This document shows positions 57,486-64,000 of a stretch of DNA of 64,000 nucleotides, piece after piece (position 1 is the stretch's first letter; the number at the start of each line of letters is the position of its first letter). The notes under the pieces were generated by a model. It was not told the DNA's origin. It ran no database searches and worked only from the letters and a program-made list of their open reading frames with translations. Source of the stretch: an uncultured Roseburia sp. (GTDB lineage Bacteria > Bacillota > Clostridia > Lachnospirales > Lachnospiraceae). The stretch is from positions 26,701 to 90,700 of the forward strand of contig CAMXSH010000004.1 in NCBI GenBank assembly GCA_947246475.1. Direction: 5' to 3'. Both the position numbers and the translations under genes were made by a program.

Positions 57486-57984
57486 GGGAATTACCTCCTC
57501 CCCGGTATTTTTCTGCCAGATATGTCTCCCACACAGAGTCAAGGACAGCCTGGCGCAGCACTCCGGTGTCAAAACCAGAGGATTCGTAGCCCTGCCGGAT
57601 CGTTTCAAAATAGCTTCGGGATGGCGTATCATAGGGATGGTGCGCCTCATTCATAATGTAGACCATGGCGCTCATCCGTCTGCGGTTTACCGTTATCCTT
57701 AACATTTCTTTGCGGTAGAGGTGGGGATAGCCTTCATACATATCCAGGCTTCGCTCATCACCGGGCTGCAGCCGCCAGATCAATACTGGCACCTGGCTGC
57801 CCTCATGTTTTTCTACCGTTGCCACGGCAGTGTTTTTGCCGTGGAACATCAGCCGCCAGTTGCGGAGAAATGTTGTTCCCACAATTTCCGCAGTGGGGCA
57901 GCGCCTTGCCATCTGTTCGATGTTGAGGTTAGAACCGTAGGCAATATAGAATCTGTCTCTAGCTGGATTATTATTTTTACTCAT
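57421..57984 (-). CDS. Gamma-glutamylcyclotransferase (AIG2/GGCT-like)
   Basis: YIAYGSNLN..QM..RCP and LDMYEGYPHLY (catalytic Glu) motifs; coupled to the amidoligase stop codon. Confidence 0.88.
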   Translation of the reverse strand: MSKNNNPARDRFYIAYGSNLNIEQMARRCPTAEIVGTTFLRNWRLMFHGKNTAVATVEKHEGSQVPVLIWRLQPGDERSLDMYEGYPHLYRKEMLRITVNRRRMSAMVYIMNEAHHPYDTPSRSYFETIRQGYESSGFDTGVLRQAVLDSVWETYLAEKYRGGGNSHDRNRERADSRHPGSRGNEYV

Positions 57985-58937
57985 AGGTTTCGTCCTCCAT
58001 TCTCAGTATTTCTGATGCCTATATGGCTTCTGACATTTTCCCTTGAACCATACCGCCAGGCGGCATTGCCGTCTAAATGCTGGTATAGATGTTCCCGGCA
58101 ACTCTTAAACTCGTCACCGATAAACCCGATGCGGTTCAGCCACACGCGCATGGCAAACTTCTCATTTTCCTCCTGCACTTTCCGGCTGCTGGCGCTTTTC
58201 TGCGTCAACGCCTGATGGTTCAGGGCGAGTGCCAGCACAATGTAGGCACGGATTTTCCCGGCATGCAGTGTCCCGTTAAACCCTCTCAGCTCAACAGTAT
58301 GGTTGCCATGGAAAAAGCTGTGTAGGTTGAGGAAGTAGTAACGGCTGCTGTTGTAGTGGCTGTTACGGTTTCCAGGATACTTCTCATACCAGATACTCTC
58401 AATCTGCTCAAAGGTTGTCGGTTTCTCCCTGTTCATCCGTTCCACGAGGTAGGCATCCATCTTTTTACAGTAACGCATCCGCTCCGGTGCAATCTGCAGT
58501 GCTTTATAAAGCAGGTCATTGTGTGCATAAATGATGTTAATAAAGTTGCGAATACTCCTCGGCGTATGGTCTGCCCCGTTCAGGTGGATGTGGATGCCGC
58601 AGGATTTGTTTGCAAACCCACCGGCTTTGCGCAGACGCCTTGCCAGCGCCTGCACCGTGCCGATATCCTCCTGGTAGAGCAGGATGGGGCTGACCAGCTC
58701 CACGCTGAAATGGTCGTCCGCACCGATGGTGTGGTTTCCGTTTTTGCGCTGGCAGTGAATGCTGCCGTCAGACATAAACTTCCATATGCGCCCGTCAGAC
58801 GCAGTGACTTTTTGGGTATTATAGTAATCCCCTGGGGCGGCGGTTGTGCCGTCCAGGTAATTTGCAGCGGTTTCCGCTGCCTTTTCCCGGGTAATCCCGG
58901 TAAACTCGGCTTCAATGCCGAACTGGTTGGTAAACAT
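57981..58937 (-). CDS. Putative amidoligase (COOH-NH2 ligase, Amidoligase_2-like)
   Basis: FGIEAEFTG, WKFMSDGSI, VELVSPIL, SCGIHIH, SRYYFLN and TVELRGFNGTL motifs; AAGGAGG RBS before ATG 58937. Confidence 0.88.
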   Translation of the reverse strand: MFTNQFGIEAEFTGITREKAAETAANYLDGTTAAPGDYYNTQKVTASDGRIWKFMSDGSIHCQRKNGNHTIGADDHFSVELVSPILLYQEDIGTVQALARRLRKAGGFANKSCGIHIHLNGADHTPRSIRNFINIIYAHNDLLYKALQIAPERMRYCKKMDAYLVERMNREKPTTFEQIESIWYEKYPGNRNSHYNSSRYYFLNLHSFFHGNHTVELRGFNGTLHAGKIRAYIVLALALNHQALTQKSASSRKVQEENEKFAMRVWLNRIGFIGDEFKSCREHLYQHLDGNAAWRYGSRENVRSHIGIRNTENGGRNL

Positions 58938-59169
58938 TTGGCTTGCCCTCCTTTTCTGACAGCACAGTGCGAAACGGGGGCATCCACGGATGCGCCCCGG
59001 ATTCTGGGTGCGCACCATGGCTGCCGTATGTTTACTTCGTGTTTCTGTTACGTGCTAGGGTTAGACCTCCTTTCTTGTCCACATCTATCAAGCGGCTGAT
59101 GTATTACCATATTGCTTCTGCCGCTTTCATAGATATTAATGATATGCAGTGGGGATATCTGATTTGGTG

Positions 59170-59394
59170 CTATGACATGATATCCCCCTTATTTTCTGCC
59201 GGCAGATACCCGGCCAAAGCGGTTTTTGCCAGGGATGCCGTCTCTTTGTTCGTTTCTTTCTCTTTCGCATTCTCGATTGCAATAGCAATAAGCGCCCTCC
59301 CAATCTTTTCTATATCAGGGTGTTCCCGAAAGTCTGGTGTAACCCTTACATTATGAGCAGATGACGGCCGTCCACGTTTTCTTTTATTGTTCAT
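59170..59394 (-). CDS. Small basic-then-helical protein (74 aa), possible DNA-binding protein
   Basis: ATG overlaps the MTase TGA; KRKRGRPS AT-hook-like segment followed by an amphipathic helix (PDIEKIGRALIAIAI). Confidence 0.6.
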   Translation of the reverse strand: MNNKRKRGRPSSAHNVRVTPDFREHPDIEKIGRALIAIAIENAKEKETNKETASLAKTALAGYLPAENKGDIMS

Positions 59395-60563
59395 GCTGCC
59401 TCCTTTTCTGCCCCGGCGGCTGCATTTTCCAGCCATACGGCTTTAAGGCGCAGGCCAAGGGCGTGTATCACATTGACGGTTACGGCATTGCCAGCCTGTT
59501 TATATGCCTGAGTATCAGAAGTCACAGCCAGCAGTTTATCAATCTGCTTATCAGAAAACCCCTGCAGCCGCAGGCATTCTTTCGGGGTAAGGCGCCGGAT
59601 CCGCATATCCGTGTCCACAACCGCCTTATCGGCATGCGTGGTCAGGGTGTAGGAAATGCCATGCCCTACACGTGCGCGTTTTTGGTTCTGGCTGACATAG
59701 GAAGTGTCGACAGAATCGCCGGGTTTCGCCTCACTGTATCCCCGCCTGGTGGCCTCTTTGATGAGGAGGACGCCATCGCGTGCCTGCCCGCTGCCAAGCC
59801 CTTTGGCATAGCTGGCAGTAAGGGTGCGGGCGGACTCCCGGGTATCCGAGATGCCGTCCCGGCTGCTGCAGCTTACGAGATACAGCCCGGTTTTCCCGCC
59901 ACCTCCCCCGGAACTGGCGAGCTGGGTGCAGGCTACGCCGCTGGGGTCGTAGACTCTTGCCCCCTGCGCCCCGCCGACGATCTGTATAAGAGCTTTTCCA
60001 TCTGTTCCCGGGAGAGGAAGTATTTTTCCGGCACATTTTGGATCAAGATATCCGACAATGTAGACCCGTTTCCGTGACTGCGGGACTCCAAAACTCTTGC
60101 TGTTAAGCACCTGCCATTCCACACCATACCCAAGTTCTGATAGCGTGCCAAGGATGGCTGTAAATGTCCGTCCTTCGTCATGGCTGAGCAGTCCGGGAAC
60201 GTTTTCAAGTATAAAAAACGCAGGGTGTTTGGCTTTAAGGATACGCGCGATGTCAAAAAAGAGCGTGCCTCTCGCATCCTGGAAACCACAGCGTTTTCCG
60301 GCAATGGAGAAACTCTGGCAGGGGAATCCTGCGCAGAGCAGGTCAAAGTCCGGCATTTCTTCTGCTTTGATGGTTGTTGCGTCTTCATAGTAGGTTTCCT
60401 TTGGGTTAATGTGATACATATTCCGGTATGCCTTGTCGGCATGCGTGTCAATCTCGGAGTGGCCGATGCAGGCAAAGCCCCCGGCTCGCTCCAGGCCGGC
60501 ACGGAATCCCCCGATACCGGCAAACATATCGAAAAAACGAATATTCTTTATGTTCATGGGCAT
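59391..60563 (-). CDS. DNA (cytosine-5) methyltransferase
   Basis: Motifs I (FAGIGG), IV (GFPCQSFS), VI (LENVPG), VIII (PQSRKRVYIVG), IX (RRLTPKECLRLQGF) and X (YKQAGNAV). Confidence 0.96.
   Translation of the reverse strand: MPMNIKNIRFFDMFAGIGGFRAGLERAGGFACIGHSEIDTHADKAYRNMYHINPKETYYEDATTIKAEEMPDFDLLCAGFPCQSFSIAGKRCGFQDARGTLFFDIARILKAKHPAFFILENVPGLLSHDEGRTFTAILGTLSELGYGVEWQVLNSKSFGVPQSRKRVYIVGYLDPKCAGKILPLPGTDGKALIQIVGGAQGARVYDPSGVACTQLASSGGGGGKTGLYLVSCSSRDGISDTRESARTLTASYAKGLGSGQARDGVLLIKEATRRGYSEAKPGDSVDTSYVSQNQKRARVGHGISYTLTTHADKAVVDTDMRIRRLTPKECLRLQGFSDKQIDKLLAVTSDTQAYKQAGNAVTVNVIHALGLRLKAVWLENAAAGAEKEAA
59933..60523 (-). other. Stop-free +1 overlapping frame inside the MTase gene (possible second polypeptide)
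   Basis: 196-aa ORF with an internal ATG at 60277; contains TLSDILIQNVPEKYFLS. Translation is unproven. Confidence 0.4.
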
Positions 60564-60666
60564 TCTTCCTTTCTTAGAATTACTAAAACAGTTACAGTAA
60601 CAGTTTGTCATCTCCAGACCCTTAGCACAGCTAAGGCTGGCAGGGCAGGGTAAACTGGCAAATTTG

Positions 60667-60909
60667 TTATTTCTTTTCCGGTTTATTTTTGTGGTCTGTT
60701 TTACTGTGTTTGTTTATATCCTCAAGGAGCATCTTGACAAATTTAGCTGCTTTGGCATCCCCTTCCTTTTCTGCTTCATGGAGTGCCTTGGTCAGCATGT
60801 CTATTGCCTGGTCATGGGTAAGTGTCATTTCCCAGTCAATGATTTTTCCGTTTTCGTCCCGGTTCACCCACAGTGATATGCTGTCGGGACCACTTGCATT
60901 GTTGTTCAT
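60667..60909 (-). CDS. Hypothetical protein (80 aa)
   Basis: AGGAGG RBS; flanked on both sides by CTTAGC-nnn-GCTAAG palindromes. Confidence 0.6.
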   Translation of the reverse strand: MNNNASGPDSISLWVNRDENGKIIDWEMTLTHDQAIDMLTKALHEAEKEGDAKAAKFVKMLLEDINKHSKTDHKNKPEKK

Positions 60910-61035
60910 AAGCCTCCTTATGGCATTTATTAAACTGAAACAGTGGTTAAAATAATCTTTCTAAGAAATATGTCCTTTGCCGTTTTCGTGTCCTGTCCCT
61001 TAGCTGGGCTAAGAGCCTGGAAGACAAGTGGCTGC

Positions 61036-61995
61036 CTAACACAGCATGGCATCATCCCCTCCATACCGGATCAGCCGGTCCAGTTCCTCATCCGTGATGA
61101 CGGCAAAGAGCCGGGGCTGCCCCACAAAAGCGGCGTGGATATGCTCCGCTAAATGTTCTTTGCGTTTCTTAGTTGGCACGATCCAGACCGCCAGCGGGAA
61201 CATGCCATGTTCTTTCTGCTCCAGTCCGCTGTGGTAGTATTTGTGGTAACGCTGGCATTTTTCTATAATCTTGGTGGGAGATTCGGTGTCCAGGTCAATT
61301 TCCAGAAAATAGCGGTCTTCATATTCTGCGGAGGTAAGAGCAGCATACAGGTCTGGTTTGAGGGCAACATGTTTTCCATGTTCACTGTAAACACGCCAGC
61401 ATTCCGGCTCCGGCTGCAGTGCGGACAGTTCCAGTCCTGTCTCCTGGCTGATCTCCAGAATACGGATGGAGGCTTCTGCCACGGCGAGGGTATGTGCCAG
61501 GAAATATGGGCTTGGTTCAAATGTCCTCCTTATCGGATAGGGTTTATGTTCATGCAGGCGCAGCAGACGCTCCCCGGCATGGGTGGTATGCCAGATGAGG
61601 GATGCCGAGCCTGCCCTCACTCCACCAATGCGCCGTGAGAGGCTGTCAACCAGCCCTAATTCCTTCAGCTTTTTGAGGTTGCGGCTGGCAGCCCGCAGGG
61701 CAGCGAAGGGATTTGCCGCATTCGTAAAATGCAGCCGCTGAACCTGCCCGCTCATCAGATAGCGGTATCGCCGAACCGAGAGCAAGACCTCCTTGTCACG
61801 CTGACTGAGGGAAATGTCCAGTTCTTCCAGTTTCTTCTTAGACAAACGGAGATGCTGTCCAGAGGTGCTGCTGCCAGTCTGGGAATCCGTAGTGGGAACG
61901 GAGTAGGAATCGCAGACCTTATACCGGGAAAATCCCGATACGGAGGGAGTTTCCGCTTTTGCTTTGCTGGCTCCGTTCGTTAGTCGGCTCGTCAT
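61036..61995 (-). CDS. Replication-relaxation (Replic_Relax) family relaxase-like protein
   Basis: N-terminal wHTH-like region, HTLAVAE, LKPDL and FLEIDLDTE (PD-(D/E)xK-like); ATG overlaps the coupling-protein stop. Confidence 0.85.
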   Translation of the reverse strand: MTSRLTNGASKAKAETPSVSGFSRYKVCDSYSVPTTDSQTGSSTSGQHLRLSKKKLEELDISLSQRDKEVLLSVRRYRYLMSGQVQRLHFTNAANPFAALRAASRNLKKLKELGLVDSLSRRIGGVRAGSASLIWHTTHAGERLLRLHEHKPYPIRRTFEPSPYFLAHTLAVAEASIRILEISQETGLELSALQPEPECWRVYSEHGKHVALKPDLYAALTSAEYEDRYFLEIDLDTESPTKIIEKCQRYHKYYHSGLEQKEHGMFPLAVWIVPTKKRKEHLAEHIHAAFVGQPRLFAVITDEELDRLIRYGGDDAMLC

Positions 61996-64000
61996 GGTCG
62001 TTTCCTCCTTCCAATTGTTGCATTTTCCCATTCCTGCCCGGTGTCACATCCGTCAGAAAACATACTGAGGTATTCCTCTTCAATTTGTTCCGCTGGGACA
62101 CCATAGGTGGCTTGGCTCTTTGCCTTCAGTTCTGCGGCATTATGCAGGGCTGGCGGTGGCGGCAGCGTCCTGCCCTGAACCCAGCCAACATTTCTGCCGT
62201 TTGACTGGAATGAGGTATAAATCTGGTAACGGGGCAGTGCCATAAAATCTTCAGCCGTGAGTTCTAGTGCCATCGCTGCTATGTCTTTGGCATCCCGGCT
62301 GTTTAGTCCGAAGACGATTTTGTTCCTGGCGTTGGCGTCTATCCCGGAGCGGATATTAATCGGTAACTGATCACGGTATTGGTGTGCCAGCGTCAGCCCA
62401 ACACCCAAGCCCCTGGCTTGCGCTAAAGCGTCAGAAAGGTCGGTTGGGAGTGACAGATAATCCTGCAGCTCGTCAATATAGATTTCTACAATGTGCCGCT
62501 TCTCGGCTGGGATACCCGCCCTTGACAGCGCCAGAGTCCAGGTTAGTCCAACAATCAGACTGCCGAGCAATCTGGCACTTTCTCCTCCTGTCAAACCTTT
62601 ATTGAGAGGAATCAGTACAATGCGACGCTTGTAGAATAAATCTGTCAGGGAAAACTTTGGCTTTGCCTGTCCTAATACGTTTCTCAGTCCGGGGCGTAAA
62701 AGAAACTGGCGCAGCTTGTTCAGCACGGGTTCAGTCTGCTGTCTACGCTCCGTCTCCCTGAGAGCATTAAACTGCTCCCAGAATGGTTTTAACGCTACCT
62801 TGTCTTTTATGATGCTGGTAATCTTGTAGCGAAAACTATCATCAGTCAACAGCGGAGGCAACCATAAGAGGGTAGCATTTTCCACTTCCACCAGTGTCAG
62901 CAGTGCCGCATTCAGGATATCTGCGATTCTCACACCCCAGCTGTCACTCCAAATTTCTTTGAGAACCGAAAGGATGGCATCGGCAATCAACGATGGGTTG
63001 CCATAGTCCTTAAACGCCAATGGGTTAAACCCACAGGGAGCCGGATCGGACGGGTCAATTACCACCACCTCGTCCATGCGTTCTTCTGGAATCCGCATTA
63101 GTATATCTGTTACCAAATCTGCCTTCGGATCAAGCACGAGGACACTTCTCCCGGCGTTAATATCCGCCAGAATCAGATGTAGCATGGCAGTTGACTTGCC
63201 GCTACCAGTCGGACCGATCAGGTGGCAATTTTCTAGGCTGTCCCATGGGGAAATACTCAGTTTCTTGGGATTTACTGCATCCATGGAAACGGCAAAGCTG
63301 CGGTCATTATTCTTGTTGATGGGACTGCGATACCAGTCCGGTGGTAGTGTCTGTTTGGGATGCAACCCCGGTGTCCCCGGCAGTTCTTCCTCCCCAGCGG
63401 CTAATAACAGGAAATTTGCAAGCTCCTTCGACGAAAGCTGCAGGGGAAAATGCCAGGGGATGCGGTTATTGTTAAGGTCGTCTGGTTTGGTGGATTCTTC
63501 ATGGATATGCACCCCTGCTGTCTCCAGCACCTTAAACGCGCTGACAACGTTCCGTAAGCGAGAAACCGCCCCATCCCCAGACACTCCAATGCGGATTGCT
63601 GCCTGGAAGATATACTGTTCGGCTTTCTCCCGGACTGCTTTCCGGGTTTCTGCGGAGGCTTTCTGCACATCACCCAGCAGAATCTGTAACCATGTTGCAT
63701 TCGGGTCCGATAAGTTGGCTGGCACTGGGGAAGGTGCATTTGCTCTCCCCAGTATAATCTGCACGACAGCTTCCGAGTCGCTCTTGTTTTCTGATAATGC
63801 TGCCAGTCCTGCTCGGATCACTGCCTGTGTGATGTCAGTCTTGAGGGGCAGGGACGGATGGCTGATTTTGAGCTGTCTGGCGGTACTAATAGGTGTGCGT
63901 GCGGTTTCTTCTGCATCATGGAACTCGATACTGCCATGGGCTTTTACTGCTTTTTCTATGTCCGCAATATACCTTTTATCTGCACCCAGAAGATAATGAA
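61992..64000 (-). CDS. Type IV coupling protein / VirD4-TraD-like ATPase, 5' end beyond the window
   Basis: Walker A GPTGSGKST, LDPKAD, FNPL, YIDELQDY (Walker B) and LAHQY. The frame stays open from 63821 up to the window edge. Confidence 0.9.
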   Translation of the reverse strand, partial: HYLLGADKRYIADIEKAVKAHGSIEFHDAEETARTPISTARQLKISHPSLPLKTDITQAVIRAGLAALSENKSDSEAVVQIILGRANAPSPVPANLSDPNATWLQILLGDVQKASAETRKAVREKAEQYIFQAAIRIGVSGDGAVSRLRNVVSAFKVLETAGVHIHEESTKPDDLNNNRIPWHFPLQLSSKELANFLLLAAGEEELPGTPGLHPKQTLPPDWYRSPINKNNDRSFAVSMDAVNPKKLSISPWDSLENCHLIGPTGSGKSTAMLHLILADINAGRSVLVLDPKADLVTDILMRIPEERMDEVVVIDPSDPAPCGFNPLAFKDYGNPSLIADAILSVLKEIWSDSWGVRIADILNAALLTLVEVENATLLWLPPLLTDDSFRYKITSIIKDKVALKPFWEQFNALRETERRQQTEPVLNKLRQFLLRPGLRNVLGQAKPKFSLTDLFYKRRIVLIPLNKGLTGGESARLLGSLIVGLTWTLALSRAGIPAEKRHIVEIYIDELQDYLSLPTDLSDALAQARGLGVGLTLAHQYRDQLPINIRSGIDANARNKIVFGLNSRDAKDIAAMALELTAEDFMALPRYQIYTSFQSNGRNVGWVQGRTLPPPPALHNAAELKAKSQATYGVPAEQIEEEYLSMFSDGCDTGQEWENATIGRRKRP

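Follow-up and report, generated by a model that had tools for sequence, protein, structure and literature searches.

A C5 cytosine methyltransferase gene from an uncultured Roseburia sp. appears to be genuinely dual-coding. The gene lies in a window of 64,000 nucleotides (the whole stretch of DNA that was analysed), where its main frame specifies a complete-looking enzyme and the +1 frame of the same strand holds a long nested open reading frame (ORF) carrying a canonical methyltransferase segment that is missing from the main frame. This was the central proposal of an initial annotation of the DNA, and comparison across homologues supports it. Sequence comparison of more than 60 diverged genes shows purifying selection on both frames, and we regard the nested ORF as very probably a functional coding sequence. 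Its product is, we think, probably a subunit of the enzyme, which would make the methyltransferase a two-polypeptide enzyme like M.EcoHK31I with a different segment in the second chain; we infer that the nested ORF is translated, that the two chains bind one another and that activity needs both.

The main frame and the segment it lacks

The main coding sequence (59391..60557, on the minus strand, as are all features described here; 388 aa) belongs to PF00145 (E 2.4e-81). All ten C5 methyltransferase motifs were located in it, among them motif I FAGIGGF (60504-60524), motif IV GFPCQ (60315-60329), motif VI ENVPGL (60189-60206), motif VIII QSRKR (60066-60080), motif IX RRLTPKECLRLQGF (59556-59597) and motif X GNAV (59481-59492), the last two being retained in this frame just as the initial annotation had said. 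The gene sits on an integrative element, with a Replic_Relax/T4CP pair on one side and an Amidoligase_2 gene on the other. Frame 0 is evidently a real gene, because the main-frame segment YIVGYLDP.CAGK.LP...G.QG.RVYD is kept across 120 database homologues at identities down to 58%.

Among solved structures, the nearest to the main frame are PDB 1MHT and related entries, of M.HhaI, whose catalytic domain matches it with E 1.7e-55 and to which it aligns in three blocks (main-frame residues 4-170 with 10-171 of M.HhaI, 191-231 with 229-270, and 319-368 with 270-315); IVG.GGQGERIYS..G.A.TL and motifs IX-X also align, and the variable region of the main frame holds an 88-residue insertion. M.HhaI residues 172-228, by contrast, find no partner. 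There M.HhaI reads FQFP...FVKDLLLPDSEVEHLVI in frame, whereas the window protein has 20 residues at this place and the equivalent segment in +1. An in-frame L.DILE..KYYLS segment after FxFP, present in many, not all, canonical C5 methyltransferases, is absent from the main frame. In the M.HhaI structure, reportedly that of Cheng et al. in 1993, the stretch FVKDLLLPDSEVEHLVI... is said to begin the small DNA-recognition domain; compared with M.HhaI, frame 0 would be short of some 40 residues at the start of that domain, namely the L.DILE..KYYLS segment (about 190-228 in M.HhaI). Because residues 172-228 are unmatched and FVKDLLLPDSEVEHLVI begins the small domain, the nested ORF appears to encode the piece of it that is missing from the main chain.

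The +1 frame is open for 196 codons, as initially annotated, from a TTG at 60523 to a stop at 59933-59935 (59933..60523). From a conserved ATG within it, the nested ORF runs for 151 aa (MKTQQPSKQKK...ESTTPAA; 59933..60388), and this is the proposed second polypeptide. The reading ...LKTFPDCS...TLSDILIQNVPEKYFLSREQMEKLL given in the initial annotation was recovered, its last segment lying at 59987..60061, where it overlaps main-frame RVYIVGYLDPKCAGKILPLPGTDGKALIQ directly after motif VIII; another segment, LGMVWNGRCLTARVLES (60083..60133; family consensus WG.M.NG.CLTA.ISES), overlaps main-frame motifs VII-VIII. The first of these segments is homologous to the canonical in-frame L.DILE..V..KYYLS. 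When profiles were compared by hhalign, that of the nested C-terminus matched that of the canonical segment, FxFP...L.DILE..V..KYYLS...L, over 31 columns with a probability of 96.8% and E 2.3e-10, compared with E 0.39 for the main-frame family profile, showing the C-terminus of the putative small chain to be homologous to a canonical segment without counterpart in the main frame.

The displacement recurs across a broad set of relatives. In about 75 of the 160 homologous loci that we fetched from genomes and metagenomes, the +1 frame right after QxRxR reads C[ST]LSDILE..V..KY[FY]LS......L, at protein identities down to 35-40%; these loci come from Lachnospiraceae, Oscillospiraceae, Streptococcus, Enterococcus, Peptostreptococcus, a Hyphomicrobiales metagenome-assembled genome and marine samples. 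The rest of the 160 are canonical enzymes, in which L.DILE...KYYLS stands in frame, some 25 residues later, and the +1 frame is interrupted by stops.

The nested product as a candidate subunit

We propose that the nested ORF is translated from its own Shine-Dalgarno (SD) sequence and ATG at 60388 into the 151-aa polypeptide. The first ~85 residues of this chain are weakly constrained and mostly a forced, out-of-frame reading of motifs III-VII, and AF2 (66 homologues) predicts residues 1-85 to be disordered. The last ~65, which are strongly conserved, would form a hairpin over WG.M.NG.CLTA, the LSDIL helix, the KYFLS strand and a further helix, and would carry the missing segment; AF2 places a low-confidence beta-hairpin over WG.M.NG.CLTA and is confident for the last 45 residues (pLDDT 75-95), its predictions being poor overall outside short segments (pLDDT 56 for the nested protein and 49 for the beta chain of a split variant). 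By binding the main chain, the small chain would complete or stabilise the DNA-recognition domain, and the active enzyme would be a heterodimer on the M.EcoHK31I principle. Direct searches of Pfam, NCBIfam and PDB sequences gave no significant match to the nested ORF or to its last 48 residues; phrog_16143 matched it at E 4.7e-24, with residues 4-133 corresponding to positions 6-135 of a 139-position profile, and PHROGs is the only database searched that holds the nested-ORF family.

The precedent for such an enzyme, M.EcoHK31I, was described by Lee, Kam and Shaw in 1995 (as given in PMC2836561). According to that account, its beta chain is encoded wholly inside the alpha gene in another frame and is required for activity, and beta supplies motif IX, which alpha is described there as lacking (PMC2836561). 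As far as that description goes, the window gene is alike in being a C5 methyltransferase gene with a second ORF entirely inside it in another frame, in that the small chain carries a conserved methyltransferase segment absent from the large chain, and in that the N-terminal part of the small chain would be partly dispensable. It differs in which segment has moved: the main chain in the window keeps motif IX and does not share the M.EcoHK31I trait of a large chain without it, and the nested chain would instead supply the post-motif-VIII L.DILE..KYYLS.

A set of split variants bears on the same question. In two homologues, L026 and L115, frame 0 ends 39 codons past motif VIII and the +1 frame continues through QGERIYS..G.SCTL, the TRD, and motifs IX and X, the nested C-terminus standing directly before the rest of the small domain, in canonical order. 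The nested frames of the two are ~80% identical to each other, and clustering at 90% identity gives more than 120 clusters of the split form, which are 82-95% identical to L026 at full coverage and contain up to 72 contigs and 671 members each. We read this form as derived, because its post-motif-VIII segment is closest to the one-frame genes L007 and L019. The essential C-terminal half of such an enzyme would be reachable only by nested-frame translation or by frameshifting, and because that half is not encoded in frame 0, the split form offers genetic, if indirect, evidence for use of the nested start.

M.AquI, attributed to Karreman and de Waard in 1990, is reportedly a split C5 methyltransferase whose alpha and beta ORFs overlap by a few codons. 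If so, it resembles L026 and L115 in having motifs I-VIII in one ORF and the TRD with motifs IX-X in a second, overlapping one, but differs in that the overlap here amounts to ~140 codons and the main frame is unsplit in most members of the family.

We consider it unlikely that the nested ORF is translated and functional but yields no structural subunit; its product might then regulate how strongly or when the methyltransferase acts, counter restriction, or be a DNA-binding protein of the mobile element. Such a role would sit well with the predicted disorder of the N-terminal ~85 residues and with the setting of the family: its members are orphan methyltransferases carried by ICEs, phages and plasmids, elements that commonly encode small establishment proteins. 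It would also fit a main frame that retains all ten motifs, and because of these and the 88-residue variable-region insertion the main chain alone may be active. Against it, canonical enzymes have a homologue of the most conserved part of the nested product as an internal structural segment, and this part falls at the very gap of the main frame; in the split variants it belongs to one and the same polypeptide as the TRD and motifs IX-X, in canonical order. Viral overprinted genes offer another comparison: they too combine extensive overlap on one strand, an older frame with reduced synonymous variation and a newer product that is partly disordered. Here, however, the nested product's conserved end has homologues in the host protein's own family instead of being novel, which ordinary overprinting does not explain.

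Probable initiation and constraint in the second frame

The initial annotation had named an ATG at 60277 (114 aa), and it is present, but the best-supported start on conservation is ATG 60388, which is made by Tyr57-Glu58 (TAT GAA) of frame 0. An ATG stands at the equivalent +1 position (residues 57-59) in 44 of 63 homologues and is missing there in the other 19. Most genes with the conserved ATG have GGAGG, AAGGAG or GAGGTG 8-12 nt upstream, and a duplex with the anti-SD of -6 kcal/mol or stronger is available in 61% of homologues compared with 13% of background positions; the window gene's own SD-like AAGGAA (60396..60401), 8 nt upstream of the ATG, is moderate at -5.6 kcal/mol. In the 63 aligned genes, the +1 frame has stops as far as residue ~55 and between ~194 and ~212 but none from ~56 to ~193, and in several genes stops lie directly upstream of the conserved ATG. 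A profile search of 1.84 billion representative proteins returned 7842 matches, of which 793 reached E 1e-30 or better; many of the matched proteins start exactly at the conserved Met, and several show other frame junctions. Because both SD and ATG are conserved, the pattern points to separate initiation at the nested ATG rather than to frame switching.

Programmed +1 ribosomal frameshifting or transcriptional slippage would instead fuse the N-terminal part of the methyltransferase to an alternative tail, and the initial annotation had suggested the T6 run at 60255-60260 as a place where this might happen. The run is there, but the suggestion finds no support among homologues, in most of which the corresponding Phe-Phe is TTC TTT (39 of 61 have TTC as the first of the two codons). 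Frameshifting could account for a +1 frame that stays open far beyond its conserved C-terminal part, and the context of the frame-0 stop in L026, GGG TGA G, resembles a +1 shift site. That context is absent from L115, however; the SD 8-12 nt upstream of a conserved ATG, with +1 stops just before it in several genes, speaks for initiation; and a fusion product would be without the core strand after motif VIII. We consider a programmed switch of frame very unlikely. A slip site around motif VIII was also rejected, as the Arg codons there vary freely and no slippery site is conserved.

Openness of the +1 frame was assessed in 65 subfamily genes (GC 33-63%) and in 61 canonical C5 methyltransferase genes as controls, each shuffled 500 times with protein and codon usage kept. 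Across motif VIII, the +1 ORF has a median length of 177 codons in the subfamily, against a shuffle mean of 42. No shuffle was as long in 30 of the 65 genes and at most five were in 47; in the window gene itself, 7 of 500 synonymous-codon shuffles gave an equally long ORF. The combined Fisher p of 9e-74, taken over 65 related genes, is an index, not an exact probability. The canonical controls show no depletion of stops (median 31 against 34 codons, p 0.10), and on the strength of the shuffles and these controls we reject chance or codon bias as the source of the open frame.

Constraint at synonymous sites is confined to the overlap. Among 63 genes, synonymous-codon identity was computed for pairs below 60% protein identity, after dropping codons whose third base could make a +1 stop. 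Observed over expected, it is 0.99 (residues 6-53) and 0.97 (200-388) outside the overlap, and inside it 1.23 (57-95), 1.21 (96-130), 1.42 (131-162) and 1.96 (163-193); with all codons included, the peak over residues 163-193 (59979..60071) reaches 2.2-2.5 (0.73-0.84 observed against 0.33 expected). Two of the checks that the initial annotation had proposed, for depletion of +1 stops and for synonymous-site constraint among homologues, thus came out in favour of coding, the latter with up to 2.0-2.5 times expectation over residues 163-193. Individual frame-0 codons are fixed, including rare ones under the WG.M.NG.CLTA segment (Gly143 GGG in 60/61, Leu151 CTT in 54/56) and others further on (Ile167 ATT in 50/50, Gly169 GGA in 55/55, Tyr170 TAT in 34/34, Leu171 CTT in 45/45, Ile179 as the rare codon ATA in 33/35, Pro181 CCT in 47/47).

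The periodicity of variation changes over the same stretch. Entropy at frame-0 positions 1/2/3 is 0.88/0.77/1.59 bits before the overlap and 1.03/0.87/1.69 after it, and in residues 165-182 the order is inverted, at 1.16/0.64/0.65. Variation there is greatest at the third base of the +1 codons, and the replacements in +1 are conservative (D/E, K/R, F/Y). Because position 3 of frame 0 is less variable than position 1, the +1 frame is the dominant coding constraint over residues 165-182. The features by which a functional overlapping gene is recognised comparatively, namely stop depletion, synonymous constraint confined to the overlap, second-frame periodicity and a conserved start signal, are all found in this family.

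Some of the resemblance among nested ORFs nonetheless comes from the main frame, as the initial annotation had cautioned. The nested-ORF profile matches the +1 frame of canonical genes in other genomes with E 1e-11 to 1e-23, but none of these matches extends beyond profile positions ~1-129, and each is broken by 3-15 stops. Because the profile also finds such stop-ridden frames, the N-terminal similarity of the nested ORFs is in large part forced by frame 0. The caution held for the N-terminal two thirds of the ORF and failed for the C-terminal 60 residues, which, like the openness of the +1 frame itself, are not forced. That the constraint is non-coding (imposed by an RNA structure or a DNA site, or following from frame-0 conservation and codon bias), or that the nested frame is what remains of an ancestral split gene in decay, is a highly improbable reading, and largely refuted at sequence level: although frame-0 conservation alone gives recognisable +1 similarity in canonical genes and the nested ORF drew blanks in Pfam, NCBIfam and PDB, those canonical genes have 3-15 stops in +1 where the subfamily has none, the flanks of the same genes are saturated at synonymous sites, residues 165-182 vary at the third +1 position with conservative replacements, and a relic would not last down to 35% protein identity in several phyla.

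Distribution and origin of the arrangement

The nested arrangement is far more widespread than the single precedent of M.EcoHK31I suggests. We found the nested ORF in 234 phage records, 147 of them from Streptococcus phages and others from phages of Clostridium, C. difficile, Lactococcus and Enterococcus, and in 95 plasmids (Bacillus, Enterococcus, C. difficile, Listeria); nearly all of these records annotate a single dcm gene. Across 401 genomes sampled from the phylum, 27 gave a match at E 1e-10 or better, most of them stop-ridden forced or in-frame-like C-terminal matches, and a handful held full nested ORFs. A second, divergent subfamily, represented in three genomes from three different families, has a main frame reading VLDAQYWGVPQRRKRIFLVADF... 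and, in equal register, a nested +1 ORF of 134 aa that ends LSQIL..VPEKYYLS.KAC.GILRRA..RGKELP.

A few existing records already hold the nested product. In the S. thermophilus phages P0091-P0095, a nested CDS is annotated as 'DNA methyltransferase' (e.g. ARU13099.1, YP_010682272.1), a name that is a transferred annotation; in phage P0093, the 287-aa methyltransferase CDS carries in its +1 frame a nested CDS of 139 aa. By sequence, these phage CDSs and phrog_16143 are the same protein family as the nested ORF of the window. A literature search for analyses of the conservation, dual coding or function of the nested ORF found only the M.EcoHK31I work, and a proteomics paper on a streptococcal phage lists one methyltransferase peptide, from frame 0.

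The arrangement poses an evolutionary puzzle, in that two segments that follow one another in canonical enzymes, the strand after motif VIII and L.DILE..KYYLS, are here encoded by the same 19 codons. The genetic code may have eased their superposition: a hydrophobic frame-0 strand, with codons of the form NTN, reads C, S, L or F in +1, giving 'CSLS', and G-[HY]-L reads D-I-L. Because of these correspondences, gradual co-adaptation of the two segments on the 19 codons is plausible, a scenario that leaves their origin unexplained.

Bacteria seldom have long genes that overlap on the same strand, and claims of such genes are often contested. The present case rests on hundreds of diverged copies, with the flanks of the genes as internal controls and their canonical relatives as external ones. 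We put forward tentatively, as a proposal that falls somewhat short of probable, that a large and old clade of mobile-element C5 methyltransferases consists of obligate two-chain enzymes whose second chain comes from a +1 ORF of ~135-150 codons in the catalytic half of the gene. The clade would take in at least two divergent subfamilies, on phages, plasmids and ICEs of Firmicutes and beyond. Were this so, the annotated single-ORF proteins and their codon-optimised copies would be incomplete, and inactive or altered in specificity, and few long same-strand overlaps in bacteria would be better supported than these nested ORFs. Should the enzyme depend on the small chain, a common class of orphan methyltransferases is incompletely annotated, and recoded or codon-optimised versions would silently lose a second gene, which matters for the pre-methylation of plasmids to pass restriction barriers and for the assignment of methylomes. 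M.EcoHK31I, in that event, would be one instance of a recurrent design rather than an isolated curiosity.

Nested frames in phage genomes and in a second subfamily

The nested +1 frame is already present in public phage annotation: in Streptococcus phage P0093 (KY705253.1), it is a separate GenBank CDS, P0093_47 (139 aa, 'DNA methyltransferase'; 1549-1968 of homologous locus L161), lying within the methyltransferase CDS P0093_46 (287 aa). Phages P0091, P0092, P0094 and P0095 carry a nested CDS annotated in the same way, and it was the nested CDSs of P0091-P0095 that seeded the PHROGs family phrog_16143. A divergent second C5-methyltransferase subfamily, found in three genomes, each of a different family (loci L163, L164 and L165), also has a nested +1 ORF, of 134 aa (L163:865-1266, (+), and likewise in L164 and L165), whose register with respect to motif VIII matches that of the first subfamily. 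Its main frame contains ...VLDAQYWGVPQRRKRIFLVADF..., and the nested ORF ends C-terminally in LSQIL..VPEKYYLS.KAC.GILRRA..RGKELP..LK.ALEKQA.

Split variants and other frame junctions

In the split variants L026 and L115, frame 0 stops 39 codons past motif VIII, and the continuing +1 frame reads through the TRD and motifs IX-X (in L026, alpha 592-1182 and beta 758-1813; L115 likewise). This split form is highly abundant in gut metagenomes, where clustering at 90% identity gives over 120 clusters of it; the database proteins P0121 and P0129 also link the two frames, but at other junctions. Separately, in the 611-aa database protein P0175 an N6/N4-type methyltransferase (DPPY) leads into C5 motif I, past which it follows the nested frame up to that frame's stop; either P0175 is a genuine fusion that includes a frameshift, or it results from misassembly.

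Gene neighbourhood

Around the methyltransferase, a single-strand gene order spans 57981-63998 (-) of the window: a T4CP-like ATPase gene (61992.., (-)) comes first, and Replic_Relax (61036-62031, (-)) shares 40 nt with this T4CP gene. An 80-aa ORF (-) then precedes the methyltransferase, whose 3' end has a 46-nt overlap with the start of an 88-aa ORF (-). Amidoligase_2 (57981-59018, (-)) closes the series.

Forced similarity in ordinary genes

The nested-ORF profile also matches the +1 frames of ordinary C5-methyltransferase genes from other genomes (E 1e-11 to 1e-23; for example, G251:C4:47729-48097). That these frames are matched despite containing 3-15 stops shows that frame-0 conservation strongly forces alternative-frame similarity, a pitfall for profile searches.
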